From Ruditapes philippinarum (Eukaryota), in the NCBI RefSeq assembly GCF_026571515.1, contig NW_026853246.1, positions 1 to 64,000 of the forward strand: a stretch of 64,000 nt of DNA, in the 5' to 3' direction. Position 1 is the stretch's first letter. Each line of letters starts with the position of its first letter. Positions 1 to 26,007 of this stretch are shown here, piece by piece. The notes beneath the pieces were generated by a model that did not search any database, was not told where the DNA came from, and saw only the letters and a list, made by a program, of their open reading frames with translations. The position numbers and the translations under genes were made by a program.

Positions 1-493
1 GGGAGAGAAATTTAGCCAGTGCCAGCTGCCATGTTTAAATTGGCAGCGTGTGGCTAATTGAACATTAAAACGGCTACAACGTAGAAAATAAGTTATTTTA
101 AGTAATATAACCATCGTAAATATTAAAAGGATGAAGTTGTCTGTACATGCAGTGTATGTTTTGATGATTAAAAGTTGATGTCATGAAGTACAGTTAATTA
201 CTTTAGTACTTGAGTAGTTTCCGGATACGGGTTTATTTTCGGACGTAAAATGATGGGCCTGATCGTTACAATATCATTAAGCATAACATATGAAGAAATG
301 TAAATTGCTTAACATTTATACCATGCAAAAAACAGAAAGAGCTTTAAATTATACAATTATTCAATCATTTATCTAAAATTATTTCTTTATGAGGTTCGTC
401 ACTTTATGGTTTACTACTTGTGCTGTAGTTTTCTTTTAACATTTGGCCTGAGGCCTACTTTTCTTGAATAACCGTTAGGCATTGGGCCTTTGA

Positions 494-2051
494 TTATTTG
501 TCAGGCTGCCAGCAATATGCGTTTGAAACCTTGCCATTGGTGTCGTCGAAATGAACATCCGCTTGACATTGTTTCTGAAATTAATTTAAAAAAATCTAGA
601 CGTGATCTGGTCACGAGGAGGAATTCTGAAAGAAATTATACTTTCTATCTATAAGATTTTTATTGTTTTAACGCAACGGTTATTTTCCTGCTGTATTTTC
701 TATAAATATTTTTTAAATTGTGTTATTTCTTATAATTTGATACTTTGTACTGTCAACTTAAGAACAATTGTCTAGGAACGTTTTTACTACATTTATGTGA
801 AGAGCGTGATGTTTCTGCCCTACAACATATAACGCGCATGCGCGAAAAAACCTTATTCCGACCAGTTCACGAATGGCATCGAGGAAAGATTTATATCACA
901 CTATGGAATCATACATGTATTAAATTATGATTAGAAATAGCGATCCATGAAAAAAAGGTTAGTCATTGGTACTAACACTCCACACAATTTTTGAACGATT
1001 TGTATTTACTTGTACACAGTTTGAATGATAATATTTTGCAATGCATTTTAAATGAAGATTTGACCAGCATAAATTATTAAATGGTACAGGAGAAAATGGT
1101 TCTTATAATTAACATATTAGAAAACATACAGAAACATACTTAAAATAATCATAATAAACAAACAAACTTGCACTACATATAAAATATAGTACTATTATAT
1201 AAATAAAAAGAGTAAAATGCTAACATACCAATATGCCATATTGACATCTAGCTTTAAATATAACCCGGTATTCCTCATACGGAACTTTGGTCTGTAGGGA
1301 AAAAAATACTTTTAAAACACAGTATTAATTCGCACTTTTGTAGACATCTTAAGATTACACGGGATAATTCGTGCTGTCTATTTTTATTGTTGCTCTGTAA
1401 AAACAAAGCATTTGGTGACATTGTACATAATTGGCTACTGAGGACGTTAATTATGTACTTACGAAAATAAATACCAATATGCTTCAACAAGTTATAACAT
1501 AATTATTGTAGACTTAAAACGTCTTTTCATTACCAAAATTTATCTTAACAACGATGGTTGCAATTTATTTCTGTTATTTCTGGTAGAAGAAATAAAAATA
1601 GAAATAACATGTTTAAATTTTTGTTATTTATCATAAAATCTGTGCATTACATATAAAAAGACAATGATTCTTATTTCGGTCAAATTATTTTCATTAATAC
1701 ATATACATGTCTTGCCATACTTCATCGTTACAAGGTGGAAAAATACAGTCTTCTGTTGCATATTTATATTTCTAAATTGTCAAAGGGTCAGTTTGCAAAG
1801 AAGTATGCAATTTCATCTTAATTATATAAAGTTTATGTAAGTATTTTATTTTAAAATAAACGTCTTACCTTTACATTTGTCCATGCTTTTAATAGGCTTA
1901 TATATTCAACTTCAAGAAATTTAGCAGCCGTACTTGCAGCTAAAATTGCCCTTTTTAGCGAAACAGCAACTGGTTTCCATATTGTCTCAGGCATACATTC
2001 AACACCAACACCCAATAAACATAGGACGCTTACGAAGATTGCAATTTTCAT
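494..2051 (-). CDS. G1: secreted cystatin-fold-like protein, 108 aa, 3 exons (2051-1869, 1291-1229, 574-494)
   Basis: ATG at 2051; donor AAG|GTAAG at 1869; acceptor CTACAG|ACC at 1291; donor TTG|GTATGT at 1229; acceptor TTTCAG|AAA at 574; TAA at 496-494; both introns phase 0. Spliced: MKIAIFVSVLCLLGVGVECMPETIWKPVAVSLKRAILAASTAAKFLEVEYISLLKAWTNVK/TKVPYEEYRVIFKARCQYGIL/KQCQADVHFDDTNGKVSNAYCWQPDK*. Hydrophobic signal peptide; all three exons paralogous to G2 and G3. Confidence 0.88.
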
Positions 2052-2114
2052 TTTAAAGATAAACGTGTTTAAACTAGGAAAGCTGAATGGAAATTACAAA
2101 AGAAAGGACACATC

Positions 2115-2235
2115 TTTATATACACTTCAGTAATTTGCTGTCATTTCGAATGTCTAATGATGATGTTTATTTCAAAGGTGTAACCATAACTGCCATAACA
2201 GGAATTTTAAATGATTTTAAACAAGGCCTTAACTG
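2115..2235 (-). promoter_or_regulatory. G1 core promoter: TATA box plus conserved upstream motifs
   Basis: TATATAAA on the minus strand at 2122-2115, about 65 bp upstream of the ATG. Plus-strand TGATGTTTAT (2161-2170) and AAATGATTTTAAACAA(A/G)GCCTTAA (~2209-2232) recur upstream of G2, G3 and the relic copies. Confidence 0.6.
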
Positions 2236-2599
2236 TAAGCATAATATTAAATAAAGATCTTATTGTAACTTTTTGAATTAAAAAAACTACTTTAGATCGT
2301 GAAAGATGTCATCAACTATGCTTTTTCTTTTGGAATCAAAACTTTTATTTCATAGATTCGTTGTTTTTCTTTAAATATTTAGGTTTGCAAAACTATATAA
2401 ACTGTCTTTAAAGGGGAAACTTTTAATGATAACAGTTTTTGGCCTTAAATGTTTTATGACCCTTTTGTTGAAATGGTTTAGCATTCGCGAAAATAATATA
2501 ATTTTTACCGTCAAAGTCTGATACTTAGAATAAACACATTGTGTTTTAAAAGCAATTGCACGGAATGACAACGGAAATCATTTTGTTAATTTTTTTTGG

Positions 2600-2960
2600 T
2601 TCTCAGTAAAGTCTAAACGTTTGGTGGCTTAGTACATAATGGACTAAATAAGATCAAGATTAATAAAAAAAACCCAAGAAATACGGATCTAATTTATTCA
2701 TATATAAAATGGATGCCACATTGTACAAGGCATGGAATCAATAGCACACTCAATAAACAAACAGTGGTTACAAAAAGTGTTTGTTTCATTTTCCAAACAA
2801 TTTTCTTACAATAACAAAGCCAACTTTAGATGATTCTAGAAGGACTTCTATTTATATGTAGCCTAGCAAATTCGCTGACATATTGAATTTGTTAATTTAT
2901 ATGATGTTTATGTCCTAAGAATTTTCAAATCTTTTTAAACAAAGCCTTCATTGCCAACTT
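2600..2960 (-). pseudogene. Decayed exon 1 plus promoter of a G1-like paralog
   Basis: ATG at 2789 reads MKQTLFVTTVCLLSV; after a 1-nt deletion it continues AIDSMPCTMWHP then a stop, compared with G1 GVECMPETIWKP. It has its own TATAAATA (2856-2849) and the same TGATGTTTAT and TTTAAACAAAGCCTT upstream motifs. Confidence 0.75.
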
Positions 2961-5900
2961 AACGTGAAATATACATTGTTGTTAATATTTGAAACCTGCT
3001 AAATTTGAATGATGTGGAGACACTTATCTTGTCAGGTTTAAATATTTGTACTTTTGTTTAAATTTCAAATCATGTAAATATCTGTACTGTCTTTATAGTT
3101 GTATTTTATCATTGAATTTCGGATTTTCATCATTTCACAGTGAACTAATAAAGATAATGTTCACAGAAGCCGGATATTTGAATGCAGTTGAAAATAACGT
3201 AAGTGGAAATATCGTCAGAAATACACTCTGTCGTCCGAAACAGTGCAATTGATTACAAAAAAGCACAAATATTTGCATATATGATGCAAAAACATTTAAC
3301 AAAATTTTTGAAATTTTACATAATTATTTTTCAACAAGAATAATATGACATTAATGATTTGTTGACATCAATGAGAGTGGATGCCATTATGTAGCAAACA
3401 TTTGTAAATCAGGCTGAAAACCATAAAAACATGAAATAAAGAGAAAATATGTTTGCTTTATATCTGGGTTTCACACGGAAAATTATTATATAATTCAAAT
3501 TATATACATGCACTATAATCTTATTCAGTGGGAATTGTACTTTTCGGGCGTTCTTTCAAGTTTCATTTATATTTGACTTACCCTCTAACTGTCCCCTTAT
3601 TTATGGCGCCTAAATGTTCGATCCAATCATTTGTTTGGTGTTCGATGACCATATTAGTTGACTTAATGTTGTTCCGGGCCACGTGCAACAGAAACAGACG
3701 ACATTTTGAAGGCAATTTAACAAGAAAAAATCAAAAACATCTACAACACATATATTTACTTATCGTTACGATGTTATTCCATAACATACCCGTCGTCAGT
3801 CTAGTAATATATTCGAGAAACAATTGACGGAAGTATCCGTTTGGAAACTAGCCAAACATAAATCAGATAGGAATACATAATGTTCATCAGATACCGTCTC
3901 TTAACGCCACATTCGGTCTACTCTTGGGACCAATTTAATTTTGTATAATACGTACTAATAAATTTTAACCAGCTTAGTGTTTCAAATTATTTTTATAAAC
4001 AGTCGACTTACTAGACTGATAAACAGTTTGCCGATTTACCAAAGTAAATGTGTATCGATTTATTTGAAATGCTGCAAAACTATTGTACGAAAAATAATTT
4101 TGAACACTAAATGTTTATTAAACAAGTATTAGCATTTCCAAAAAAGCTTGGAATCGCCGTTCAGCCATGAATATAGAAATAATATTTTCCTTTTTTGCCT
4201 AATACTTTTTTGTATGTGTTCAACACATAAAGCCAACACAAATACTTGATTTACTCTGCCATTCCGTTCTTGTCAAAACATCTTGACGCGCTCAGCTAGA
4301 TTCTGCTGGAGATACTCAGTATTGCCATAGAGAAAAATATCACACTAACTTGACGCGCAGTACAATAAGTAAGACTAGATGCGCTACTTAATAAGTACGT
4401 GCATCAATCGACAAAAAGAATTAGCTTCTTGCGTAATTAACAACACTTACTTGCTACACATTAAAATTGATGTCTGTGAACATGCTATAAAAGGAAATTA
4501 CGTTATATATTCCGTCGACTGCTTTGCGAAGTCTTTTTCTTAAACGGACTATAACTAACCTGCTATATGCGATAATGATGCAATTACAACACTCATAGTA
4601 TTAAACTTGCCCAAGAGAAAGCATTTATAAGGTTTTCTTCTTTGAAAGAAAACAAAATATACTCTTTTTAAGGCTACATTCTCTAATCAGAAATGACATG
4701 TAGCAAAAAATATTGCAATTTGCTGTGTTTATCCTGCAAGAGACTAAAGACTGGTACTGAGTTCGTACAATGATAATGATAATTTTCAGTTGTACGAATA
4801 AGTTACCCGACAAAACATGGAGGTTGGGCGAGTCCATTTAAGCATCCCTCATTGAAGTTTTTTATGTCCATTTTGTTATCATGTGATAATGAATTATTCA
4901 ATTTGGCTAAAGGCTGGCGGTGTACAGGCAGAACTGTTCAAATCTTGTTAATTGTATAGGAACGGCGATAATTACATTGATATTCTATGTAACAAATCTT
5001 TTAAGAACGGCGATTAGCTTATGAAATCAACATTATGTTAATGTTTAAAAATTTTATAAAATATTTCATCAGATATATGTTTTTATACACTTTAAAGCTA
5101 TTAATAAACAAATCCATAATAATGGCCGAGTCTATTGCTTGACTGTTTTGTAATTAAATGTAAAAAGTACTTTGTTGTGTCTCTGAATTTAGATTCAGCT
5201 TCAAAACTAACTTGCGAGTGATAAGGAATCGTAAAACGTTTGATTGTGATGAATATTAAGAACATTGCAGCTTGCTTGAAAAATAGAATATGATAAAAAC
5301 ATTGATTTTCAATTGTATTGTTTATGATGAACATGAATTCTTTGATTTATGTGACACATTAATAAGATTGTTTTGAAACTTCGGTAAACCAGGGTATACA
5401 CATTTTTCATTTGGTAAAACAAAAAGTAACACAGATGTACCTGTGGTTCTGAAAGTATAACAGATTTTATTTGTTTGGGTCGTCAGAGGTTTCGAGTTCA
5501 AATCCCAGTTAAGGCAATTCTTGTTTTTTTTAATTGTTTAAGCCAAATAAACATTGAATTCAATATCAGTGTTGTAATTAGTCTTATAACTAATTTGCTA
5601 CAGTTGTAACACTGGAAATAGCATTAGTGGCACTATACAGAAACAAATTGGTTTATAATCTCACAACCTTCACCTTTCTGACATTCTGAGACCCAAACAA
5701 ATTCAGCGCCTTCTGTGCTTTGATTGTTTAAAGACTGGCTAATCAAACTTGTGTTTATCAAATTACTTGAATTTTATTGCGTGATCGAAACTTTCAAATT
5801 ATTGATAAGTGCAGATTCTATAATTTATGTAAAGGATATTCTTTTTGTTGCATATGATCACTTGAATATTCATCTATTTATTCAAGTGAAGATAATAGTG

Positions 5901-6535
5901 GTATCCATATTTTGAATACAAATTAAATTAGATTTAACATAAATTTTCCTTATACAAAATTATTTCCTGTGGAAGATTCTCCAAATATGAACAATTATTT
6001 ATTTATCATCTAGAACACATTGATGAGGTTTTTAATCTGCTATTTAAAGATATGTGACATCGTTACTTACGAACAATCATCATATGTACATCTTTCGTGT
6101 TGTGTTGTCGTGTATGATGTTACACGCTATCAACGTACTAAGTATAGAGGGTATAACATACCTTCCATTATAGTCAACATCACTTTAAAGACAAAATTTA
6201 ATATTGTAATTGAGGACGAGTATAATTTGTCTTTGAATGTTCATTGTGTAACAACATAAGGTATATTTATGTTAAATATATCATGATTAAGAACCGATTC
6301 TCTCATAGTTTTATTTTCTCATGTTATCAACAATAGTAGGAAAAAGAAATTTAAATTCTTTAAAATTTATTTATACTGTGCAAAGATATAAGAGAAGAAA
6401 AACTTGATATAGTTTAAATTTTGAATTATTTAATCCTTTAAATTATTTTTGCAGTTCGTCACTTCTGTTTAATTGTATTGGTGTTTTGTGTTTGTCCGAC
6501 CAGTGGCCTATATTTCTTGAAACAAAAGCACTAAT

Positions 6536-8663
6536 TCAATATGCGTTGTTTTGTGCTTTTGCTTCCTCGATAGCCTGCCAGCAGGATGCGTTGTAAACCT
6601 TACTGGTGGGGCCGTGAAAATACACATCCGCTTGACATTGTTTCTGAAATTAATGTAAAAGCTATATATATCTTGCCATGGTGTAAAAGTTGTTTAAGAA
6701 GACAAATTACATGTTCATTTATGTCGTTACTATGGGATCTTGTATTAATTATTTACCGAGAAACAAAATTAGCTCAAACAATCCAAGAAACGAAATATAC
6801 TGTATCAGAACCAAAATGTTTTACTTTGTAAAGAAAGACACCTGAAATAATTTATTAATGTTGCTCGACAGATAACAAAAACATAACTTATCAATGAATA
6901 ATTGTATATTGTGTACTCACTTGTTACGCAAAAAAAGTGATAATAGGTCAAACAGTATTATGCTTTATATCATACCATGAATTCATACATGATATTACAA
7001 ATATGCATATCCATAAAGAGAAATGGTAAGTAATTTGTATAGATAATATTCCATAAAATAGTTCAATGACGATTTGTAAAATAGAAATAATAACGGGAAA
7101 TAATAGTGCGGGATATGATGGTTCTTTGTTTTTAAGCAGAACTCATAGATAATCATTCTATGCTAGATTGATGATAGCATGTCATTATATAACCCTAAAT
7201 CCAACAAATAAACCAACAAACTTTCACTACATATGAAATATAATACAATTAACAATACTTGAGAGGTAACTTTAAACATACCAATATGCCATACTGACAT
7301 CTAGCTTTGAATATGACCCGGTATTCCTCTAGTGGATATTGAACCTGTAGAAGAAAAAATGATTTAAGTTTAAAATAAAATACTATTTCGTTCTTGAGTA
7401 CAAACTTTAACATGATGGGTATGGAACTTGAAGAAAAGTTTCCATGCCTAAGAGGTTGATCTTTTGGGTGGAAATATTCGCTCAACGTAAAAGTTTCACA
7501 ATTCGACTTTATTGTACCTTTGTTAGCGCAATGCGTTTGCACACTTGGTATGTTATGATAAGAAACTCTTTTTCCAATACAAATACTTGATTATCTAGTT
7601 TAACTCTTAACTTGCTCAAAATCTAAAATCTACTGGACAAACTTGTTCATTGTTGTTTAAGAAATATACAAACGGGTTGTAACTGACTGAGTAGTTAACA
7701 GTGCAGACTCGGATCAGACGGAACAAACAATTGTATCAGTTACGGTAAGCAGCTTAACAGATAAACGTTTTAACAAAACAAATACAAAGAGAAAATATAT
7801 GTTAACTATGTACTTATGGATATAATTGGTACTAACTTGCTTCATGACAGATATTTAATATGGTAGACAATAATTGTTATATTTTTCAAACGTCTTTTCA
7901 TTACCTTATTATATTTTTCAAACGTCTTTTCATTACCAAAAATCATCTTGAAAACAATTGTAGCAATATTTTAATGTACTGAACGATATAACAATTAAGA
8001 AATGAGAATTTTAAAGTCTTGACTTTTATCATAAGAGAACTGTACGATACAAACCGAAAATGGTCGATATTTTGGTGTTATGATCTTTTAAAAGACATAT
8101 GAGCTGCGCAACGGCAAAAACCAACATAGTTCGTTTGCGACCAGCATGGATCCAGAAAAATCTGCGCATCCACAAAGTCTGATCAGGATCATTGCTGTTT
8201 GCCTACAAACTCTATTACAAGAAGAGAAACTAATAGTGTAAATCATTGATCTTGATCCACGCACTATGCTGGCTTTTGTCAAGACACGGTTCATATATGT
8301 TTGCCATACATAAAAGTTATTGTTACCAAGTGAAAATTATTACACTCCTTCTATAACATATGCATATTTCTATATTGCAAAAATGTCAGTTTGTAAACAC
8401 GTATGCAATTTTATCTAATTTATATGTTGCAGTGTTTTATGATCAAAAAGACTTACCAGCACATTTTCCCAAGCTTGTAACAGGCGAATATAGTCAACTT
8501 CTAGATGTTTAGCAGCCGTACTTGCAGCTAAAATTGCCCTTTTATGCAAAACAGAAACTGGTTGCCATTTTGTCGTCGGAGGAGGTACCGGTGGAGGTAC
8601 CGGTGACGATTCAACACCAACACTCAATATATAGAGGACACTTACGAAAAGTGCTAGTTTCAT
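6536..8663 (-). CDS. G2: secreted cystatin-fold-like protein, 125 aa, 3 exons (8663-8457, 7344-7282, 6643-6536)
   Basis: Canonical phase-0 GT-AG junctions at positions homologous to G1. Spliced: MKLALFVSVLYILSVGVESSPVPPPVPPPTTKWQPVSVLHKRAILAASTAAKHLEVDYIRLLQAWENVL/VQYPLEEYRVIFKARCQYGIL/KQCQADVYFHGPTSKVYNASCWQAIEEAKAQNNAY*. TATA-like CATATAAA at 8732-8725. Confidence 0.88.
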
Positions 8664-9815
8664 TTTCAAATTAAAACTGTTCAACAGGAAAATCTGAATT
8701 GCAATGATTCGTGAAGAACTTCTGTTTATATGCAGCTCAGCGAATTCTCTGACAACTTGAATGCATTAAATAATGATGTTTATTTCTTTCTAAGGTGTAA
8801 CAAGAACTGCCAAATAGCAATTTCAAATGATTTTAAACAAAGCCTTAATTGTAAACCCAAAATGAATTTAAGATATTGTTGTCATTATCTGAAATTTTAA
8901 GTATCTGTCAAAGACCGCGTAGAACATTATAATGATAAATTTGCATAACTTATTAAATGTTGAACATTTCATTCTTTGAGAATAAGAAACTCTTGTTTTG
9001 TTTTATATATTCGCACATTTCTTTCAATGCTAAATTTCTAAAAAAAAAAAACTATATCTGCACTGTCTTTGTATGAAATTCTCTTAACAATAACAATTCT
9101 TTTCCTCGAATATTTTACACGTTTTCTATCTCTTACAGTGACATTATGTCCATAAAAGTGTCAATGGTAAATGTCATTGAAATAACTTAACATTTTGTAA
9201 TATTTGCTTTTAACTGTATAATTTACTACACCTGAAAAAATAAAATAATTATAAGCACATGACAAACAAAAGCAAATTTAGATGCCCTTGAGAATTTATC
9301 GGTAGCATTCATTTTTATTAAAAGATTGCGGACAGTCATGTTTATAATTAAGGCAGTTTATCCAAAATATTTGTCAATATTTTGGTCAATCGCCATAACA
9401 ACAGGCAATCCTTTGAAAATATAATCAATTTTGTCCAAATTGATTAAAATTAGCATAATGTCATAATGTTATTATATCTATATCATTTGTAGAAGAAGAA
9501 TACAATACATTGCAATGATTTGTATATAGAGAACAACGTTTTTAAAATCGATGAAAGATTCATAATTATTTACAGTAACTGTTCTATTATAAAACCTTTA
9601 AAAGACTAAAATCATGACTCGAATTTAAATACAGTATATAGAAGTTAAAACAAACAGTGTAAATAGAAAATGTTAAAATGTAATAAAAATATCATCTACA
9701 AGTTGTTTACAAAGTCATCACCTATCTTAATTACGATTTTTCTTCGGGCGTATAAAATGGTAATAAGTATTACAATCAAAACAAAGCTCCACCCGAGTAT
9801 CGAGCCTTGAACTGC

Positions 9816-9915
9816 TTGCACACAAGGACAGTTTAGGTATTTGTAAACTACTATTCCACCTGAATTGCACACAAGGACAGTTTAGGTATTTGTAAACTAC
9901 TATTCCACCTGAATT
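9816..9915. repeat. 49-bp perfect tandem duplication
   Basis: TTGCACACAAGGACAGTTTAGGTATTTGTAAACTACTATTCCACCTGAA occurs at 9816 and 9865; the paralogous G3 flank (~19725) has a single copy. Confidence 0.9.
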
Positions 9916-10915
9916 AAACGTTACAAATTATTTGTAAATAATAGGAAAGTTTATGCGAAAAAAGAGATTAAAAGTTCTCCGTCTTCCATTACAAATCGCT
10001 TTTGACTGTAAAACATTGTTTTAGATTTAAACTGCAATGAGTCTGTTCTTCACGCTGGTCAGGTCTGCAAATATACTTTCATCTCTTTTCCTCTTTTTTT
10101 CTTTTTTGCAGAGAATCACTAAGAGTAGATAGGCTCCAATATTTTTCTCCTTGTTATTTATAAGAAAAGGTCACTATTCCGAAGTCGTCTGAAACTAAGT
10201 ATTATCGTATCCACTCGTGGTTTCCTGTTGCAAACAACTGAGTATTTTTCGGCCAAAAAATAACAATTCTTTATATACCCGGTTGAATCATTGCAACAAG
10301 ACAATGTCTATCACTGAATAAAAGTACTGTCGTCCTGATAAGCACTAATTGGAGATGTAATAATGGTCATTATGCCCCAGAAGTACAATTTATTTTACAA
10401 AAACAAATATTTTATTGTTTTGGGTGTTCTGATTATTGTTTCAAAAAACGTTACTGGCTGGCAAATTATATTTTTATTTTATTTTAAAAAATATAGCAAC
10501 ATTTGTGTTCCTTACTTTTTAGACAAAATAAAAAAACAGGCGTTTGTTCTGGTTACAAATGTAAATACAGCAAAATAAAAATATAGTTAAAAAAAATAGA
10601 ATAAAAAATAAAAATAAAAAAGGTTTGATTTAAACTTTGTATATTTGAATCTTAGAAAATAATAACTTAGCAAGCAGCATTGTAACATAACATTTGTTTC
10701 TGAGTTAAGAGAGACATTGGTGGATGATAGTTCGGAAATTACCTGCAGATGACTGATGCTGGATAATAACTTTTGGTGGAACAAATGAGATTATTATATA
10801 ATGTTAGGAATTATCTTTTTTTCTTCTTTATTGTAAATCTTTATAGTTTCAGAATTGAAGACAATCAACTTGGAAGAGAACATATTTTAAAAGAAAACAA
10901 AATAAAAGGATCCCC

Positions 10916-11253
10916 GAGCTCGTTTTTAATTTAACATCCGATGAAATTGTGAATGTTTTTTTGTTATTGCAGGAAATTACAAAGGGCAAATAACTTATAC
11001 ATTAGTCTTACAAATTCCTAACTTGTAATACGCATAAATTAATGTCTTCATTTTATTCTTTGGCCACAATACAAATTTTCATGAGAGCTCGTTTTTAATT
11101 TAACATCCGATGAAATTGTGATTTTTTTTGTTATTGCAGGAAATTACAAAGGGCAAATAACTTATACATTAGTCTTACAAATTCCTAACTTGTAATACGC
11201 ATAAATTAATGTCTCCATTTTATTCTTTGGCCACAATACAAGTTTTCATGAGA
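10916..11253. repeat. ~169-bp near-perfect tandem duplication
   Basis: GAGCTCGTTTTTAATTTAACATCCGATG...TTTTCATGAG starts at 10916 and again at 11085. Confidence 0.9.
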
Positions 11254-11809
11254 TTCCTTTCAGTAAAAGTAAAAAGACTAAAATGTTGTTAAAATATGAA
11301 AATGTTTAGAAGTAAAAAAGAAAAAATAAACAAACTACTATTTTCTATTCTTGAAATTTTGCATAATTACTGAAAAGAATCTCAGCAAATATATAAAAAT
11401 TGTAAGAAAATGAGCATAGCTCTAAATAAAGAAGAAGAAATATTGCATAATCACCCAACAGAATGTCGGCTATGTTTTAAGCATAAAAAACATAACAATT
11501 GTGAATTTCCTATCTGTGGCATTCCGCATAATTTTCGAATTCAAAGGCTGATAACTCAAAAATAATGTTGGTGAATTCTAATGTTTAAATAAAGTCTATT
11601 ATACTGTTCTTATTCTGAAATATGTCTATATGTAACCGATACATAAGATGTTACATGTTACAATTCTTCACAGAAACTGTAAAATACTGTTATCAGCTTG
11701 TTTTACTACTTTTATTTACAAAAACAATCATATTAAATATATGTATAAAAGTCCGTATGCAAACAAGTTTGCAATTTAATATGAATTATATTGAGTATTT
11801 GTGTTTTAT

Positions 11810-12300
11810 TGTGTACTACAGCAGCGAAAGAACAAAGGACGATTGTGAAATTTGCTGGTTCTTTTTCAAAATGAAAGTCTTCTATTTACATGAATCCTTT
11901 CAAATTTGGTGACAGATTGAATGTTTGTAATGTTATGAAATATGGTAAACAAGATCAACAAGGAAAGTTTATGTATCGGGAATTTCAAATGATTCTAAAC
12001 AAAGCCTTAATTGTTAACCAAATGTGAAATAATTATAATGATACATTTGCATAACTCATGAAATGCCTATTATTGTACAATTATCTGTATTTTATTTTGT
12101 CTGTTTTGAATATTTGTACTTTTCCTTTAACTTTCAGTACTTGAAAATGCATGCACTGTCTTTATAGAAGAACTATATGACAATAAAATGAAACAGTCGT
12201 GTATATTTTATAATTTAATTATTTCCTCTTCAAGCGCGATATTATGTCCATCAAAGTGTAAATAGCGAATGTCAAAGTAAAAATAATTAATATTTTAGGA
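11810..12300 (-). pseudogene. Highly decayed exon-1 start and upstream region of another family copy
   Basis: Minus-strand TTTGAAAAAGAACCAGCAAATTTCACAATCGTCCTTTGT aligns to the G2 start TTTGAAAATGAAACTAGCACTTTTCGTAAGTGTCCTCTAT (ATG>AAG plus a 1-nt deletion). The family upstream motif AATTTCAAATGATTCTAAACAAAGCCTTAATTGT lies at ~11981-12014. Confidence 0.55.
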
Positions 12301-12983
12301 CTGTACAAATATTAAACAAATTTAACCAATTACTTCTATTCTATGTGCTTATAATTTCACAAGATACAACGTGACAAGGACATCTCCACAAACGACTTTT
12401 ATGAGAAACAACAAAAGTTGTTTTCTTAGAAAAGTTCAGGTTGAAAATCATTTGATTTATAAAACACGTACTATCAAATTTGAATATTTACAGTACATCA
12501 ATTATAAAAGTAAACGAAAGCTGTTAGATAATTCTATGATAGATATTAAACAATTCTGGAATATATTTTAAAAAATGGATTTTTTTAAAGAAAATGTACA
12601 TTCTTTAATAATCTATAATGAAGGTTTGATTATTTATGGTGATTCTATTAATGCACTGTTCTTGGTCCATGTAAAGTATAATAGCTTCAATTAACGTCCC
12701 TTTATCTTTCTTAAAAATCAAACAAAGTATAGACCATTTACGTGCAACTAGATCTGGGTTTGATTGTGTTTACTTTCAATGTGCAGACGTGCAATTTGTA
12801 TGATTTACCGTTTTAAGGCTTTTTTTGTAGTAAAGGGTTTGTAATTGGTATTTTTCAAAGATTAAAATAAAAAAAAATATTTTTTAATACTCTATTTTAT
12901 TTGATTTACAAGTGCTTATCAAAGAAACAGGGTATTTTCTATTATTTCGATGTGTATCTTTTCAGTAATTTCTTGCTCTTAAA

Positions 12984-13372
12984 TAGGGTCTTTCAAATAG
13001 AATGGTCTGGAGTCGTACCAAATTTACGAAAAAAGTTGTCTCCGCTGAGTCAAGTGTTTATCAACCGACCGTGATCTGGCACTATACATCACAGTTGAAA
13101 ATCAAATTATAAACTAACTTTTTGTTACGTCAATCAAAATATTACTGAAAACTAATCCTGGGTGCATTATACTAACAGTTTTTACTTTTAAAAGTATTTT
13201 TTTTATGGATTTGCAAAGAAATAAGAAATTTATCGTTCCTGGTGTCAAAGTAAAAATCTACTGCTATTATTTGAAAATAGGTCCAAGTTTCATAGGCTTT
13301 TTTTTATTCTATGCAATGTTCAATGACACAATAGAAATTGATTTTACAGACCATTCTATTTGAAAGACCCTG
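12984..13372. mobile_element. MITE with 25-bp perfect terminal inverted repeats (Tc1/mariner-like ends)
   Basis: AGGGTCTTTCAAATAGAATGGTCTG at 12985 and its reverse complement CAGACCATTCTATTTGAAAGACCCT ending at 13371; no ORF. Confidence 0.8.
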
Positions 13373-13928
13373 TCTAAAACAATTTATTATCTGCTATATA
13401 TAGATACGTAATACCGTATCATATGTCTAACACACAATGTATACTTCTTTCTGGGTATTTTGTCTTGTATAATGTTAAAGCTATCAGCGAAGGTATAAAT
13501 GGTATAACAGACATTCCATTGTTGTCAAACTCACTTTAACGCAAATGTTATTGTTATTGAGGACGAGTATCATTTATCTTGATTATATAATTTTAATTTC
13601 TCGTGTTATCAACAATAACAGAAAATAGAAGTATAAATTGACGTTTTGTCTGTTGTAAATAGAAAATACAGACTTTAGTAATTGTGTAATATATTTTAAG
13701 AAATTAACGATGGTTGTTTTGGTAATTAGAGATATTTAACAATTTCTTTTTATCTTTTAACTTAGATTGTACGATATAAAGATTTACGGTATAAGGAAAA
13801 AATTCAGTTCCAAAAATGACATTGATTATAAGATTTTTTTTATCATTACTGAAATCAAATGTAATCAACATAAACAACAAACTTGGGTATACAGTTTCCA
13901 TATTAAATCGGATATTTTAACTTGCTTA

Positions 13929-14018
13929 TTACGTCAAAAATATTATTAAGTAGAGACGCCTATAATAGGCGTGGATTTGCATGAACACAGCCTTCAAAGT
14001 GTCATCAAAATGACATTT
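13929..14018 (-). pseudogene. Orphan copy of the candidate G4 terminal exon
   Basis: CATCAG|AAA...TAA reads KCHFDDTLKAVFMQIHAYYRRLYLIIFLT*. It lies in a block (~13640-14115) paralogous to 20350-20780 plus 24127-24162. No exon 1 or 2 was found between it and G3. Confidence 0.4.
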
Positions 14019-14114
14019 CTGATGAAACATTGTTTCTTTATTTTAACATTATCTCCATTTTGTTCTGTTGAAGAAAACCAGACAAAATTTACAACTAAAA
14101 ACGTTTAACCTATT

Positions 14115-14280
14115 TTATCGCCGTTCCTGTACGGCGATATATACAATTGACAGGATTTGAACAGTTCTACCTGTACACCGCCCGCCTTTAGCCAATCAAA
14201 GCGAATAATGCAGTATCACATAATTACAAAATGGGCGTTATAAACTTCAATGAGGGACGCTTAAATGGACTCGCCCAACC
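14115..14280 (-). mobile_element. End fragment of a dispersed non-autonomous element with a terminal hairpin; other copies at ~4825-4972, ~29305-29395, ~57735-57825
   Basis: Shared core TTGGCTAAAGGC(A/T/G)GGCGGTGTACAG..AACTGTTCAAATC followed by a TATCGCCG..CGGCGATA hairpin, present in both orientations. Confidence 0.7.
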
Positions 14281-16577
14281 ATGTTGGCGTGTTGGATTTT
14301 TTGAAAAATGGCAGTTTCCATGGTAACCGTATATCTCAAAATTTTCAAAATAGCCAAACTGTGTTATAATAATGTATAAAATAGCTTATTACACTCACAA
14401 TAAACATAAGTTTATACAAAGCTTGCTTTGTCTTAGGGTTCAGTATAAAACAAACGATAATTGGAACATATATTTCTTTAAAAAATAAGTTTTCATGCTT
14501 TTTTACTTAACAAAAAAATGAGAAAAATAAACATGAATTCTGTAAAAAATTAAAGCTATCAAGAAATTTCTTTCATAGAATTTTCTACATTATTGATATA
14601 TCAAGTAACATTTGATGGTGGATTCAAGAATAGAAATAAAATATATATGTTGAAGTGTTAGTTTTTTGTAAACGGGCAGTTTCCATGGTTACTGCATATG
14701 CCAACTGACAAAATTACCACGCTTTCTTAAGAAATATCAGTGTTATACTAAATGTATTGTCAAATATACAACAAAAAACATGTTGTCATAAAAATTTCTT
14801 TTTATTTTGATGTTATTGTAAGTAAATGATACTAAATATCTTTTTAAAACATATCTAGGGCCATATTATTTTTTTCACTCGACAAACATACCCGAACAGT
14901 AAGCAAGTATTCAGAAATTTACAAAGAAAATAATGAAATTCGGAACATTTCTTAGATATTAATTTTTTTTTATTCAACACTTTTAATAAATCATTTAAAA
15001 CTTCTTTAACCAGTTGTCTGCCAGAAATCAAGTCGTGACGCATTTTCGTGACTATACGATAAGTGGGTGGGGTAACGTGCGCAGAATTATCATCAATGCT
15101 GTCGTACTAATGCTTGGAGAATCCTTTATCTGATGTTGTCTAAACGACCTCTTATTCTTTTAAACCGATCTCCTTTTGAACATTTAGAAATATCTATTCT
15201 GTATTATTTACTCATTATTTATTTATAGCCGAAATTTAAACACATATCCGAATACTATTCAACTTGACATTCATTTGAAGAGTAATTATCCGTGATTATC
15301 TTTCATGGAAGCGCAAAACGATGCGCACAGAAAACTACCGAAAACGTCTTTAATCTGTTGTCTTACCAGTCCTACAAGTTTCAATAATGTATTATATTAA
15401 GGAGGAGTTAGAGGTGTGGTTTGCACTCTGAATTTTAAAATATCTAGGTTAGTGAAACAATGCCAACGTATAAAAAATGGCGAGGTCAGGGGTTTCTAAA
15501 TGTGAGGATACAATCAAGTAATTTATTACATAGATAAAACATGTGGGACACGCAAAGACAAATGATTACATAGTAACTTTTTTATATCCTTTCAATTCTT
15601 AAAAATGTCTGTTATAAATTGCTGACTCTTTTAAACTTTATATTTTCTAGAAAAAGTAACCAAAACATTATTTTCTTTCACTTGATAGGAATTGCATTAA
15701 CAATCCTTGATATTAAGATACAATAATTACATTTTTGGCGAAAACTCATTGAAAATAGACCCCTCCACCTGTTAACCTAAATTTTTGACACAAAGAAAAA
15801 TAAAAAAATGAACTGTTTTTCAATTGACCAAATCAATAAGGATTTTAAATGTTAGTGAATAACTTGAAGCTAATAACGAGTTTGTATCAATTAATAATCT
15901 CTTATTTATTGTTCTCACATTTTCAATTTATTTTAAAAGGATTTACACATTTCATTAACTCCAATATTTTTACCTAATTGCATCGTTTCCTCGCGTTTTT
16001 CAAGTCATTTTATAGAAACATGATAGTCTTACTGTAGATAAAGGTATAAATTCTGTGACATTTCAGTAAAAATGTGCCTGATTATATGTTGAAAGGGCCA
16101 TTTATTTAGCTTAGTTAGAAACTTGACAAGGTGTAGACATCTTGTAGAGCGAAAGGGTGGAGCTATCGGTGATTTAGATAAATGCCTTGTTTATGGTTGA
16201 AAAAAATAATGTTGATCATTAAATAGGTAATTGTTTAATAATACGCATTAACAAAAATAATTGGTCGCCTCCCATCTATTTTTGAATGTCCATTGTGTAA
16301 CAATATAAGGTCATTTATGTTAAATATGTCATGATAAAGAACAGATTCTCTTAAAATTTTATTTTTTCATGTTATCAATAAAAACAGACAAAAGAAATAT
16401 AAATTGTGCAACATTTATACTGTGTAATATATAAGATTAAAAGAGCTTTTTGTAGTTAAATTATTGAATTATTTAATCCTTTAAATTTATTGTTGCAGTT
16501 CGTCACACTTGTTATATTGCTGTTTTGTGTTTCGACCAGTGGCCTATATTTCTTGAAACAAAAGAACTTATCCGATG

Positions 16578-18603
16578 TTAACCGAAGTATTGTGCTTTTG
16601 CTTCCTCGGTAGGCTCCCAGCAGGATGCGTTGGAAACTTTGCCGGTGAAGCCTTGCAAAAGAACATCCGCTTGACATCGTTTCTGTAATTAATTTAAACA
16701 AACTGTGTTTATTTCTCCATCATGTGTTGTTTGTTTAAGAAGACATATTACGTATTCCATTATGTGGTAACTATATTGTACTTACTCGTATAACTAACCA
16801 AGAAACAAAAATTAGCTCAAACAAAGAAACGAAATATACTGCATCAGAACAAAAATGTTTTAATGTTAACAATGACACCTGAATTTAACTTATTAATGTG
16901 TGTCGAAAGCTAACAGAAGCATAACTTATGAATGAACAATTGTATATTGAGTACTTGTTACAAAGATACTTCAGACGACAAAAGTGATAATAGATCAAAC
17001 AGCCTCAGGCTTTATATCATACAAAGAATTCATACATGATATTAAGTAATTAAATGATTTTTGATATACATTAAGAGAAAGTGTTATGTGCCATAAATAG
17101 TTCAAAGGTCTTTTACTACACGGTCTACATGAAAAAGTTGCATGACGTATTTCTAGTAAGAAATGATAAAATGGTGCAGAAGATAGCGTTTCTTTGTAAG
17201 AGGCAGATCACATACAGAATCATACTTTGATTGGTTGATAGCCTGTCATTATATGATCCTAAAGTCCATCAAATAAACCAACAAACTTTCACTACATATG
17301 AAATATAATACAATTAACAATACTAAAGAGGTAACTTTTAACATACCAATATTCCATACTGACATCTAGCTTTGAATATGACCCGGTATTCGTCGTTTGG
17401 ATGTTGAACCTGTAAAAGGTATAATGAATTAAATTCCAAATATTTTAATATTTGGTTTTTCATTTTCAGTACAAATTTTAACATGAGTATTAAACTGAAA
17501 GATAAGTTTCTATGCTAATGAGTTTGGGCTTTCGGGAAGAAATATCTCTGTGAACACAAAGCGTTAGAACACTTGACCTGTTAAGAAAGAAACTCTTGTT
17601 GCCAATACAAATCCATCACCATCTATTCTAACTTTTGTCACGCTAAATATGTAAAACTTGACAACCTGGACAAACATATTCATTGTTTTTAAGAAATTCA
17701 TAAACAGCATGAACTGAATGAGTTTTTACAGCGCAGACTATGGTAAGATGTTGTGGTAAGCAGCTTCACAGATTGAAGTTCTAACAAATCAGTTTACAAG
17801 GTGAAAATATATGTTAACTATGTACTAATATATATAAACATATCAACATGCTCCGTGACAGGTATTTGATATGGTAACAATATTCGTCATATTATTTCAA
17901 ACGTCTTTTCATTACCTTGTTATGTTTTTCAAACGTCTTTCATTACAAAAAAAATCTTTAAACAATTTAGCAATATTATTAATGTACTTATCTAGACGAT
18001 ATAAAAGTTAAGAAATAAGACTTTAAAATGCTTGACTTTTATCATAAGAGAAATGTACGTTACAAACCAAAAGTGTTTCCTATTCTGGTGATATGATTTT
18101 TTCAAGACATATGAGCCGCACCATGAAAACAACATTATGCGTTTGCGACTAGCAAGGATCCAGACCAGTCTGATCAAGATACTTGTTGTTTGTTTACAAA
18201 CTCTATAACAAGAAGATATACAGCTGATAGCGAACATTTATTCATCACACGGCTCATATATGTTTGCCATACACAAAAGTTATTGCTACTAAGTAAAAAT
18301 TATACACTCTTTGTATAACATATGCATATTTCTAAATTGCTTCAATGTCAAAGTATGCAATTTCATCTAAATTGTATTTGTCATTTTTCTTATGATTAAA
18401 AGAAAATAACTTACCTCCACATTTACCCATGCTTGTAACAGGCTGATATAATCAACTTCCAAAAATTTAGCAGCCGTACTTGCAGCTAAGATTGCTCTCT
18501 TTGCCAAAACAGAAATTGGTTGCCATTTTGTCGTCGGAGGAGGTGAAGATTCAACACAAACACTCAATAAATAGAGGACGCTAACGAAAAGTGCTACTTT
18601 CAT
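16578..18603 (-). CDS. G3: secreted cystatin-fold-like protein, 118 aa, 3 exons (18603-18415, 17409-17347, 16682-16578)
   Basis: Canonical phase-0 junctions. Spliced: MKVALFVSVLYLLSVCVESSPPPTTKWQPISVLAKRAILAASTAAKFLEVDYISLLQAWVNVE/VQHPNDEYRVIFKARCQYGIL/KRCQADVLLQGFTGKVSNASCWEPTEEAKAQYFG*. TATA-like element at 18672-18665. Confidence 0.88.
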
Positions 18604-20632
18604 TATCAAATTAAAACTGTTCAACAGGAAAAGCTGAATTACAATGATTCTTGAAGAACTTTTGTTTATATGCAGTTCAGCGAAATCTCTGACAACTTGA
18701 ATGCATTAAATAATGATGTTTATTTCTTTCTAAGGTGTAACCAGAACTGCCAAAATAGCAATTTCAAATGATTTTAAACAAAGCCTTAATTGTAAACCAA
18801 ATATGAAATTAAAATTTTGTTGTCATTATCTGAAACTTTAAGTATCTACCAAAGACCGCGAAGAACATAATAATTATAAATTTGCATAACTTATAAAATG
18901 TTGAACATATCAATCTTTGAGAATAAGCAACTCTTGTTTTGTTTTATATGTTCGCACATGTCTTTCAATACTAAATTTCTAAAAACATATCTGCACAATC
19001 TTAGTTTGAAATTTTCTTAACAATTACAATTCATTTCCTCGAATATTTTACACGTTTTCTGTCTCTTAAAGTGACATTATGTCCATACAAGTGACAATAG
19101 TAAATGTCATTAAAATAACCTCACATTTTGTCATATTTGCTTTCAACTGTTTAATTTACTATACCTGAAAAATAAAATAATTTATAAGCACATGACAAAC
19201 AAAAGCAAATTAAGATGCCCTTGAGATTTTATCGGTAGCATTCATGTTATTAAAAGATTGCAGACAGTCATGTTAATAATAAAGGCATTTGAATAACTTC
19301 TCCAAAATAGTTGTCAATATTTTGGTCAATCGCCATTATAACAGACATTCTTTTGAAATATATTACCAAATTTGAATTTAGCCCAAATTGAAAACAAATA
19401 GCATGCAATAATATTACTTTATCCATTATACCTATATCATTTGTTTAAAAAGAATGCAATACATTACAATGATTTGTATATGTGGAACAAAGTTGTCAAA
19501 ATTGATGAAAAAATCATCATACTTATTAAAGGTTACTGTTGTATCATAAAACTGTGTGACTCAAATTTTATCAACAATATTTAGAAGATGAAACAAACAG
19601 TGTGAATAGAAAATATAAAAATATAAATCAAATATCGTCTACAACTTCTTTGCAAATTCATAACCGTATTATCAAAGTATTACAATTAAACAGGGTTCCA
19701 CCTGTGAATCGAACCTGCAACAGCTTGCACACAAGGACAGTTTAAGTATTTATAAACCACTAGCCCATCTGAATTTAACGTTGCAAAGTCTCCGTATTTA
19801 AAAGGAAGTTTCTCAGAAATAGGGTCCTTCCATTTAAAATCGATATTGACTTTAAAACATTGTTTAAAATTCAAAGTGGAATAAACAAAATTGAAAGATA
19901 AGCATATCTGTTTCTTCACTAGGTTAAGTGTATATTGTGAATAGCTTAATATTCAGTTATCTATCAACGCTCTGTTTTCCTTCAGCATAGAAAATCTTGT
20001 TTAAGTTCCAATATCTTGCTCGTTGTTATTCATTAGAATAATTGACTCTTCCGAAAACATCCGAAGTTATATGGCATAACTGCCTGAAGAATACCACATT
20101 ATTTTAAATGAGAGTTTGTAACCCTTATTAATTTTGACATATTTTGTTCACGGTAAACATGTTGTTTAGCACTAAAGTATGTAATCATGAAGCTGAATAT
20201 AAGCATGTATATATATAAGAATAACACAATATTAGAAATCTTCGACCAATATCGTATGTATTCGTAGTTTTCCGTTCTAACGACGGGACATGAAAATTGT
20301 TGTTAATTATTTGACATCCTGGTAAATCATTGCAACAAGGCAGTGTCATTGACATTGTGTCTGTTGTAATAAGAAATACAGACTTTTTGTAATTGTTTAC
20401 TTTATTTTAATATATTAACGATGGTTTTTGAGTCATTAGGGATATTTAACAATTTCTTTTTGTCTTTTTTTACACAAATTAACAATATAAAGATTTTCAA
20501 AAAATCCAAATCCAAAAATGACATATTGATTATAAAAATGTTAGTTACTAAGATGTTAACAACACAAAACAACAAAACTTATAAACTTGGGTATGGAGTT
20601 TCCATATTAAATTCGATATTTCAAATTGCTTA

Positions 20633-23700: not shown

Positions 23701-24377
23701 GTCGTTCCTATAGAATGATCGATCATATTATTTTTTTGGCTTATACAATTACGATTGTCCTGTTGTTTAATGCAAGAACATATTTTTCTTGTAAAGTTCG
23801 ACGACTTAATATGTTTATTTTTTTTTAAATTATTTTTTCATTAATATAATATTATGAAGTACGCTTGTGGCTTATTTTAGTTTCAATCTTGAATCCGCAT
23901 TCTGGAAGTACCTTGGTCATAAGAAAAAAACATGGTCACCAGCAAAATATATATCGAATAACCTGGTTGAAAGGCAGAAACTTTAGTTACTTGGTCCCCG
24001 CAACACTTTTAGAACAACATGTTTTATAAATATATATAATATTTCATTTCATGATATAAACAGCCAAAATGGTTTGGCCTGAGGCTCAAACAGATCGTCA
24101 AGTGTCAGATATTGTATTTAAGCCTTACAAAATTTACAACTAAAAACGTTTGATTTTTTATCGTGAACAACATCGAAATAAGGATATTGTAGGGTTTTTT
24201 ATTTTATTTTAACTTTAGCATGACAGACTTTTCATCCTTAATGAATAAATATTACGTTAAAGTTACATCTGATACTAGCGCAAGAATCAATCTACGAGTA
24301 TATCTAGATGAAATTATATTGAACCAAGGTTATAAGAATGAAGTACTGTCGTTTTGATGAAGCAAGTTTGAATATTA

Positions 24378-24533
24378 TATAGAATATTATATTCGTGTAG
24401 ATTCAATACTAAATTTATTGAACTCGTTGAATAAAACAATATTACGCTCGCCAGAGGCTCGCATAATATGATTTTATTCAACTCGTTCAATAAATTTAGT
24501 ATTAAACCTACACTCATTCAATATCCTCTATAT
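24378..24533. mobile_element. Palindromic (fold-back) element terminus
   Basis: Imperfect hairpin AATACTAAATTTATTGAAC..GTTGAATAAAA / TTTTATTCAAC..GTTCAATAAATTTAGTATT, ending in AATATCCTCTATA, the reverse complement of the TATAGAGGATATT end seen at 32830. Confidence 0.7.
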
Positions 24534-24760: not shown

Positions 24761-26007
24761 TATAAGACCATTACTGTCTAGAGCCTTGAACTTCACCCGG
24801 TATTCATCAGTATTTTGCTTTGGCTGAAAGACAAAATATGTGTAAATATGGTATTCATTTTCTACAAAGAACTCGAGTAAAATAAGTAATGCCTCATTAA
24901 ATAAAAAATGCGCGTAAAAATTAATAATGCTCGAGTGAATTAATTTAAGTTTGCATAAAATAACTTAATAATGGTAAAGTAAAAAAATGATGTTTGAGTA
25001 GAATAATGAATGCTGGAGAAAAATATGCAATGCTCGAGTAAAACATCTCATGTGCGATTAAAATAACTACATACGAGTACATAGCATAACATGATTATGT
25101 AAGTTAATGATCCAGATTTAAAATATTTTAAGTATTTATTAGTGTAAAAATATTTATTTCAAGAATATTTGGGTATTATCATTTACAATGACAACACGTA
25201 TAAAAGAATACGTTCACATTAAATTGAGGACATTTTACTAAGCTATAAAAGTAAAAAAAATGTTAAGATACGAATTTCACTTTTGCTAAAACAATATGTT
25301 ATTTTCAGTATGTCATTACAGACAAAACAGAAATTTTTTTTTCGTATAATATGTGTGTCCAACAGACGGGTTACATGTTGTCGCTTACAATTTTAAAAGA
25401 AAATCGTTTATTCTATAACATATAGTATCTCTCAACAAACAGTCAAATACAAATTACCATGGTCACATGAGAAAAAAGAAACAAATAAGTCATGACAACA
25501 ATGCACGGTTGTTTCTAACAAATGTTGGAGTAAAATTACCAATGCCCGAGTAAAATTACTAATGTTCGACGAAAATAACTAATGCTCAGGTAAAATAACT
25601 TATGCCCGAGTACATTTTGATTTTCTGTCCTACACAACTACAAGAACTGCTTACTGGTTAAGCAACAACATCATAATTCTAATAAATATATGCACTTTGT
25701 AAACTATTAAAACATATGTGAAATTTATCTCAGATATAAAATATTTTCATTTAAATATATGCCTTAATTAACATAATAACTTTGTGAACAAATAAAATAA
25801 GATAATTATGATAAGATGACATACATTTATCCTTTCTTGAGCTGAAATCATGGCTTTGAATGTCACGCCTAGTGCTTCTGCTGCAACAAAAGCTGATCCG
25901 AGAGCCCTTCTTGACTGTATGCGTATATCGCGCCATTCAGTATACGGTGGTGGCGCAACAACAAAATTTAACATCAAAATTACACTTAAACAAACTTTAA
26001 GCTTCAT
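24761..26007 (-). CDS. G4 exons 1-2 (26007-25825, 24823-24761): secreted family member; exon 3 tentative at 20722-20633
   Basis: MKLKVCLSVILMLNFVVAPPPYTEWRDIRIQSRRALGSAFVAAEALGVTFKAMISAQERIN|GTATGT ... TTTCAG|PKQNTDEYRVKFKALDSNGLI|GTAAGT. Exon sizes of 61 and 21 codons are identical to G1; EYRVxFKA is conserved; TATAAATA at 26096-26089. An alternative in-frame ATG lies at 26022. Confidence 0.82.
24870..25612. repeat. Two degenerate 20-21-bp minisatellite patches (consensus AATGCTCGAGTAAAATAACT) in G4 intron 1
   Basis: Units are visible at 24870-25080 and 25521-25612. Confidence 0.7.

Follow-up and report, generated by a model that had tools for sequence, protein, structure and literature searches.

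The window analysed here is the first 64,000 nucleotides of contig NW_026853246.1 of the clam Ruditapes philippinarum. Towards its start lie three related genes, designated G1, G2 and G3, which encode predicted secreted proteins of cystatin-like fold and whose differences cluster in two hairpin loops, L1 and L2. All three are intact minus-strand genes of three exons, with GT-AG introns in phase 0, and encode 108, 125 and 118 residues, respectively. Exon 1 of G1 (1869–2051) runs from an ATG start to a GT donor in phase 0 and encodes the predicted signal peptide, strand beta1, the helix, beta2 and the first half of L1; exon 2 (1229–1291) encodes the second half of L1, beta3 and the back turn; exon 3 (494–574) encodes beta4, L2 (533–550) and beta5, and stops earlier than in G2 and G3. 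In G2, the last four codons (8457–8468) of exon 1 (8457–8663) form the first half of L1, exon 2 (7282–7344) supplies the second half at 7327–7344, and exon 3 (6536–6643) carries L2 at 6602–6619. The corresponding exons of G3 are located at 18415–18603 (first half of L1, 18415–18426), 17347–17409 (second half, 17392–17409) and 16578–16682 (L2 at 16641–16658 according to the predicted model). The spliced G2 and G3 proteins are identical to database proteins P0007 and P0008, both named uncharacterized in R. philippinarum.

The initial annotation described these genes correctly: the motifs it quoted are all found at the minus-strand places given, EYRVIFKARCQYGIL and KRAILAASTAAK are identical across G1, G2 and G3, and the six loop strings match. 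The interval 6536–18603 to which the finding was assigned nevertheless leaves out G1 (494–2051). Between exons 2 of G2 and G3, codons 3, 5 and 6 differ by one, three and one bases (five in all), each codon changing its amino acid; a single synonymous difference (codon 19) is found in the last 15 codons. Exon 3 changes are indeed mostly nonsynonymous, with 13 of the 15 differing sense codons altering the amino acid, the last three in a tail of uncertain alignment. The back turn of the three genes (1229–1264, 7282–7317 and 17347–17382) encodes a third, unpaired cysteine beside a tyrosine, invariant among them, which could serve for cross-linking or dimerisation.

Both G2 splice junctions, including the joint 6643–7282 with canonical ends, are present in contigs of three public runs from three studies, whose RNA status is a guess. 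In these runs the summed contig depth, a poor proxy for expression level, is hundreds to thousands of times higher over the G2 exons than over the intron; a fourth run is flat and DNA-like. When four raw RNA runs were mapped on 350–18800, repeats dominated and exon bins had about zero depth. Expression of G1–G3 is thus apparently tissue-restricted, being near silent in four RNA runs and abundant in contigs of three others. A repeat piece in intron 1 of G2 (within 8117–8156) attracted tens of thousands of RNA reads. High-copy repeat pieces, with long inverted repeats and a small-transposon-like character, occur at 8117–8156, 5620–5725, 24376–24532, 29437–29588, 32829–33003 and 55230–55367.

One database isoform, P0005 (494–8663), joins exons 1 and 2 of G2 to exon 3 of G1 and so pairs L1 of G2 with L2 of G1. 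No such G2-to-G1 junction occurs among the loose ends of contigs that were displayed, 6 loose ends and 319 pieces being hidden and G1 lying outside the stretch covered. Exons 2 of G1 and G2 show three differences in their last 48 bases and none in the last 12; because of this near identity at the 3′ end, mis-mapped short reads are the likelier origin of P0005, and a plausible one.

A predicted cystatin fold without papain-binding motifs

Pfam scans of exons and full proteins assigned no family to the members scanned, with no match to PF00031 or PF16845, and searches of the PDB by sequence and by profile returned nothing significant. The AlphaFold model of G3 has a mean pLDDT (predicted local distance difference test score) of 80.9, with values of at least 90 in most blocks over residues 31–100. 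It consists of a strand (27–29), a helix (35–48) and four further strands (51–61, 68–78, 84–94 and 97–106). When this model was compared with 48,161 chains, the top 16 rows (Z 11.9–9.2) were nearly all cystatin-fold proteins by title, and the next rows had Z of 7.7 or less. These top rows include cystatin F, multicystatin, cystatin E/M, CRES, tarocystatin, latexin, SQAPI, tick cystatins, fetuin-B and others. We also modelled insoluble matrix shell protein 2 (IMSP2), a relative encoded in the same array (see below). This model (pLDDT 87.3) retrieved the same list of structures with a best Z of 10.9, and the top 16 rows reach Z of at least 8.7 in both searches, which places both models within the cystatin fold. 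Foldseek E-values are weak (all above 0.001, best 0.02). Matches in the ESM Atlas are a lead only, with feature matches (monellin, cystatin) below 0.9 and structure matches below the naming bar. All family members start with 18–20 hydrophobic residues that, read by eye, suggest a signal peptide; in the IMSP2 model residues 4–20 form a helix.

In the G3 model, the loop at residues 62–67 corresponds to L1 and that at 95–96 to L2; in the alignment to the family profile they coincide with QVVSG and QPW, respectively, of Pfam-positive insect multicystatin repeats. This profile matches three Pfam-positive multicystatins, at only 5–15 bits per domain, the totals being inflated by the repeats. The correspondence of the variable positions to cystatin L1 and L2, initially taken as established, is therefore backed by predicted structures and profile alignment but is not visible by sequence. 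Intron 1 falls within L1 and intron 2 just before beta4, presumably as in the cystatin C gene.

Excerpts of two papers describe QxVxG and PW as the motifs that form the papain-binding wedge (PMC2784779, PMC4390278). QxVxG is found in 0 of the 22 family members and PW at L2 in 0 of 22; two proteins hold PW elsewhere (positions 63 and 109), and the genomic copy H5 has a PW late in the L2 region. Since none of the 22 members has QxVxG, G1–G3 are not canonical papain inhibitors, and by this motif test their family is one of non-canonical proteins with a modelled cystatin fold. V73, F75, G82, C87 and C105 are invariant in the family. The two cysteines, present in 22/22, lie on neighbouring strands of the G3 model, and one disulfide between beta4 and beta5 is predicted. 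We found no literature linking IMSP2 to the cystatin fold, subscription papers and supplements lying outside the scope of the search.

Divergence of L1 and L2 between paralogs

Loops were defined as the DSSP loops of the model plus two residues on each side (G3 residues 60–69 and 93–98). Amino-acid differences then affect 9 of 16 loop positions and 7 of 64 positions in the rest of the domain between G2 and G3, 11/16 and 11/64 between G1 and G2, and 12/16 and 10/64 between G1 and G3 (Fisher p of 3e-4, 1e-4 and 1e-5; the three pairs are not independent). The clustering of G1–G3 differences in L1 and L2, as first proposed, exceeds chance. Across the three genes, 13 of 16 L1+L2 positions are variable, compared to 4 of 12 in the other three loops (p 0.014) and none of the 14 residues of beta3 and the back turn. 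In the G6 subclade, changes and indels are also concentrated in the same loops (p 0.011–0.036). G5 was excluded from the codon tests on account of its stop codon, and K6b and G9 exon 3 were trimmed.

Copies of the same type on other contigs carry identical loops. No loop difference (0/16) separates G2 from H2 or G3 from H3a and H3b, copies located on a second contig, while the core differs at 3/64 positions in the G2 type and 2/64 in the G3 type; copies are few, and these counts are too small for significance. Exon-1 ends are likewise identical in all three G2-type and all five G3-type copies, and three exon-1 proteins from other contigs keep the type-specific start of L1. Metagenome scans for alleles confirmed 0 of 171 pattern matches and then gave 0 matches. 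Because loops are identical within a type, the divergence appears to lie between paralogs: the L1/L2 differences look like fixed differences and not like hypervariable alleles, contrary to the suggestion of a self-recognition locus.

GY94-type codon models were used to estimate the ratio of nonsynonymous to synonymous substitution rates (dN/dS). With fixed site classes, the loops of G1–G3 have a dN/dS of 2.18 (F3x4, p 0.012 against 1) or 1.94 (F1x4, p 0.031), with 0.33–0.35 elsewhere; the value of about 0.2–0.35 in the framework indicates purifying selection. The estimate of 2.18 in L1+L2 compares with 0.49 in other surface loops. It varies with the boundary chosen, from 2.13–2.26 between the strict loops and plus two residues (p 0.051–0.012, with 0.35–0.43 elsewhere) to 1.8 at plus three and 1.3 at plus four. 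Random-site tests gave p 0.016 for M1a/M2a (0.028 with five copies), 0.016 for M7/M8, the comparison initially suggested as a check, and 0.004 for M8a/M8. The sites flagged are 34, 63, 66, 68, 96 and 109, all six with a posterior above 0.5 in M2a, and four of them (63, 66, 68 and 96) lie in L1/L2. The G2/G3 loop differences amount to 12.5 nonsynonymous to 1.5 synonymous, and when the introns of these two genes are taken as a neutral clock, loop dN/dS is 1.7–2.0 (p 0.009–0.052).

A number of results weigh against selection for loop change. G1–G3 provide only three independent lineages, and the hypothesis was derived from them. Site 34, one of the two best-supported, is located outside L1/L2, as is the beta1-helix link, in which four of five positions vary and which holds all four variable positions of the other loops. 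Three of the five subclades (G4/G5, G7–G9 and G11/G12) show no loop concentration. With all six copies, loop dN/dS falls to 1.5–1.7 (p 0.07–0.16). The introns of G2 and G3 contain 79 adjacent double differences where 57 are expected, and allowing such changes improves the intron fit by 9 log units; because of this excess, multi-nucleotide changes must be considered real in this pair. Once they are allowed, p rises to 0.12–0.17 in the fixed-site test and to 0.07 in M2a, and with the multi-nucleotide rate taken from the introns, loop dN/dS is 1.67–1.74 (p 0.12 for coding sequence alone, 0.052 jointly with introns). Giving the loops their own overall rate yields p 0.28. Total base divergence of the loops is not above that of intron windows of the same size (P 0.20, 0.47 and 0.64, G1 introns aligning poorly). 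In the other subclades, loop dN/dS is 0.99 (G6 group), 0.64 (G4/G5 group) and 0.18 (G7–G9, near saturation), and the codon model for G11/G12 did not converge, giving no usable estimate; pooled with the G6 group, G1–G3 give 1.0–1.4, not distinguishable from 1. One of four estimable groups being positive, the p of 0.016 becomes about 0.06 after correction. Finally, DNA upstream of G2 (about 8740–8860) and G3 (18680–18800) differs at 2 of 117 bases (about 2%) and the introns are about 22% apart, which points to conversion between copies, a known source of false selection signals. This upstream similarity is likely to be a conversion tract or a strongly conserved promoter; the coding core of the pair is not homogenised (pS 0.27).

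The initial interpretation is upheld in part, and diversifying selection is plausible. L1 and L2 change faster than other surface loops, and the plain random-site tests favour sites above 1, but the evidence for a dN/dS above 1 is borderline, with p of 0.004–0.03 in single-base models and 0.05–0.28 in robust ones. We consider real positive selection on L1/L2 of G1–G3 about equally likely to be present or absent.

The tandem array and its relatives

Iterated exon profiles identified 12 loci on the contig, nine inside the window and three beyond. The other six loci of the window are also on the minus strand. G4 (24761–26007) has an exon 1 (25825–26007) and an exon 2 (24761–24823); exon 3 was not found and the gene is likely truncated. 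G5 (27739–28335) is a pseudogene with an in-frame stop in exon 1, an exon 2 at 27739–27801 and no exon 3 found. G6 (31222–34859; exons 34677–34859, 34272–34331 and 31222–31305) and G7 (40146–42231; exons 42040–42231, 40742–40801 and 40146–40220), the latter named IMSP2-like, are intact paralogs. G8 (49719–52504; exons 52307–52504, 51761–51820 and 49719–49823) is the gene of IMSP2. G9 (58644–63583) encodes the same domain, with an exon 3 that extends for 832 codons into a repeat tail rich in Lys, Ser, Thr, Pro and Tyr. The tail comprises about 790 residues (K 16%, S 13%, T 12%, P 9%, Y 8%, pI 9.8), arranged in repeats of roughly 31 residues, and has no Pfam match; its composition recalls mussel adhesive or cuticle proteins. 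Past the window, at about 86800–87640 of the contig (C1733), G10 combines an exon 1 of divergent sequence with an intact exon 2 and a frame that resembles exon 3.

IMSP2 (Swiss-Prot P86983) is a shell-matrix protein of R. philippinarum, and its gene sits in the same array as G1–G3. A profile retrieved it at E 3e-25, a score that is partly circular because the profile contained IMSP2's own exons. As independent links, tblastn within the window matches exon 1 of G2/G3 to G4, G6 and G9 (E 1e-7 to 1e-3), the IMSP2 protein matches G9 and G7, and exon boundaries and invariant residues coincide across the family. Profile similarity to P86983 and a common exon layout thus assign G1–G3 to the IMSP2 family. 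The IMSP proteins reportedly stem from Marie et al. 2011. An IMSP2 match is listed among biomineralisation transcripts of the Chamelea gallina mantle in an excerpt of PMC9100110; excerpts of PMC7430831 and PMC4234419 mention other IMSP numbers, not IMSP2. The "IMSP-2" of PMC5379566 and PMC3374290 was set aside as the unrelated oyster gigasin-2.

The second contig (C5017) holds two G3-type genes (H3a and H3b), one G2-type gene (H2) and G4/G5-type genes in a different order and without G1; near 38400 it has a degraded exon 1, and at 60660 an exon 3 that stands alone. A third contig carries G5 and G6 types, and three further contigs another subtype. These contigs represent the other haplotype or duplicates, and at least one is a duplicate, since the G5 region is present three times. 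In one public run (X1), loose ends at 6544–6643 and 7282 lead into an exon 3 that matches G1/G2 for six to seven codons, departs at codons 8–10, where L2 starts, and has a different tail. This variant, a consensus of at most four short contigs from another animal, corresponds to none of the six exon-3 copies of the assembly and hints at a fourth exon-3 member missing from it. In another run (X3), a loose end at 6600 reads as part of exon 2 in inverted orientation and contains a stop; we discounted it as an artefact.

Against 1.84 billion representatives, the family profile gave 34 matches, of which 10 were identified: seven from Mercenaria mercenaria, two from Ruditapes and one moth multicystatin. 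Among the matches looked up, full-length named relatives come only from two venerid clams. In the tree, G1–G3 group in a fully supported Ruditapes clade, and Mercenaria shares several of the older lineages; the family has evolved by gain and loss of copies in a venerid tandem array. The family profile is also matched, in its helix half, by P0033, a protein of 846 residues that begins like a lipoprotein and contains about ten cystatin/SQAPI repeats.

Possible roles and comparison with known systems

Our leading explanation, held tentatively and at slightly less than even confidence, is that G1–G3 are recent tandem duplicates encoding predicted secreted cystatin-fold proteins that keep their framework and change their hairpin loops fast, each likely tuned to a different partner, and that they act on foreign proteins at the mantle or shell surface. 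As in other cystatins, the binding edge would comprise the N-terminal segment together with L1 and L2, and the loops would diverge after duplication and then stay fixed within each paralog. Secretion would take place at the mantle or shell surface, given that the shell matrix is where their relative IMSP2 has been recorded. Their partners would most likely be foreign proteins present there, for example surface proteins of microbes or microbial proteases outside the papain type. Excerpts of earlier work report bivalve shell matrices with numerous immune proteins and protease inhibitors (PMC5854119), immune or calcification roles for vertebrate cystatin domains without papain motifs (PMC2784779) and positively selected sites in plant cystatin loops (PMC5085774). 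A further point speaks against this explanation. G1–G3 are only about 25% identical to IMSP2, so that their shell location is transferred by homology; no record of G1–G3 from shell was found, the shell-matrix record by name concerning G8 only. Fast loops are common in duplicated secreted families, which, with the borderline selection signal, tempers surprise.

Alternatively, the papain-binding edge may have lost its job with QxVxG and PW, leaving L1 and L2 to change at a near neutral rate. In this case the working surface would lie elsewhere, on the sheet face or on the invariant back turn that carries the spare cysteine, and the proteins would serve as components of the shell or periostracum matrix or as regulators of mineral, like fetuin and spp24 in bone. 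We regard this as a genuine possibility, though on balance doubtful. The loops have diverged to the same extent as the introns, a dN/dS clearly above 1 is not obtained in multi-hit models, in the G6 group or in the pooled estimate, and beta3 and the back turn are invariant in G1–G3 despite synonymous changes. IMSP2 is named an insoluble shell-matrix protein, G9 has a long matrix-like tail, and the conversion that the upstream DNA of G2 and G3 indicates could exaggerate their contrast to G1. Against relaxed loops stand the G1–G3 estimates, all 1.5–2.3 and never below 1 for boundaries up to plus three, the strongly nonsynonymous G2/G3 loop differences, and loops that remain unchanged within a type while the core changes, in the small numbers of copies given above. 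It is improbable that the proteins still inhibit papain-family (C1) cysteine proteases through the usual wedge, adapted to enzymes of parasites or microbes. In favour of this reading, cystatins are the nearest structures, several having been determined together with papain-family enzymes, and in the wider family a Trp is often present near L2, but QxVxG and PW at L2, needed for papain inhibition according to an excerpt of PMC2784779, are missing in all 22 members, and L1 is in most members several residues longer than in the two shortest paralogs. A role as gamete or self/non-self recognition ligands under sexual or balancing selection is the least probable of these alternatives. It would suit small, predicted secreted and apparently tissue-restricted proteins, with the CRES cystatins among the structural matches as a reproductive precedent; it is at odds with the lack of allelic loop variation in the G2-type and G3-type exon-1 ends and in exons 2 and 3, and with the shell-matrix member in the same array.

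The explanation by partner-tuned loops has a bolder form, which we think unlikely as it stands: venerid clams would use the cystatin fold as a natural binder library, with at least 12 secreted, shell-associated paralogs whose loops are driven apart by selection after each duplication and whose copies are gained and lost between animals, forming an unrecognised layer of defence at the shell surface. Because the phase-0 exon boundaries separate L1 from L2, neighbouring genes could exchange them by recombination or read-through splicing, the L1 of one being joined to the L2 of another as in isoform P0005.

IMSP2 resembles G1–G3 in its array, its three-exon phase-0 layout, the invariant V-x-F, G and two cysteines, and its predicted fold. 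IMSP2 has no Pfam domain, its identity to G3 is about 25%, and G1–G3 are named uncharacterized. A predicted fold and a gene family are thereby proposed for a shell protein without Pfam match and for its uncharacterized neighbours. Type 2 cystatins (MEROPS I25B; cystatin C, E/M, F and tick sialostatins) have in common with the clam proteins a predicted signal peptide, a length of about 110–125 residues, a helix over an antiparallel sheet and a C-terminal cysteine pair, and they align with the G3 model at Z 9.2–11.9 and, for most rows, a root-mean-square deviation of 1.9–3.1 Å over about 81–83 residues. Unlike them, G1–G3 lack QxVxG, PW at L2 and a PF00031 match, have one conserved cysteine pair, and show a five-residue turn in place of the appended segment.

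Another parallel is offered by CRES, fetuin, latexin, spp24, monellin and SQAPI, which, according to the excerpt of PMC2784779, kept the fold, lost the papain motifs and acquired new partners, several with a link to calcification or immunity. The top structural rows for the clam model include CRES, latexin, SQAPI and fetuin-B. These non-canonical proteins are vertebrate or plant families, whereas the clam family is a venerid tandem array with gain and loss of copies; it would add a molluscan case of cystatin domains that lose the papain motifs and appear in mineralised tissue or immunity. Positively selected phytocystatins also vary in two hairpin loops on a constant frame, as reported in the excerpt of PMC5085774. 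They keep QxVxG and vary beside it, whereas the clam paralogs replace the whole loop. Affimer and Adhiron rank as Foldseek rows 1 and 3 for the clam model (E 0.02–0.04). In Affimer scaffolds, these same two loops are randomised. If selection on the loops holds, the paralogs could serve as probes of binding targets at the clam shell surface, with a bearing on shell diseases of a farmed species, and would represent a natural counterpart of engineered cystatin binders.

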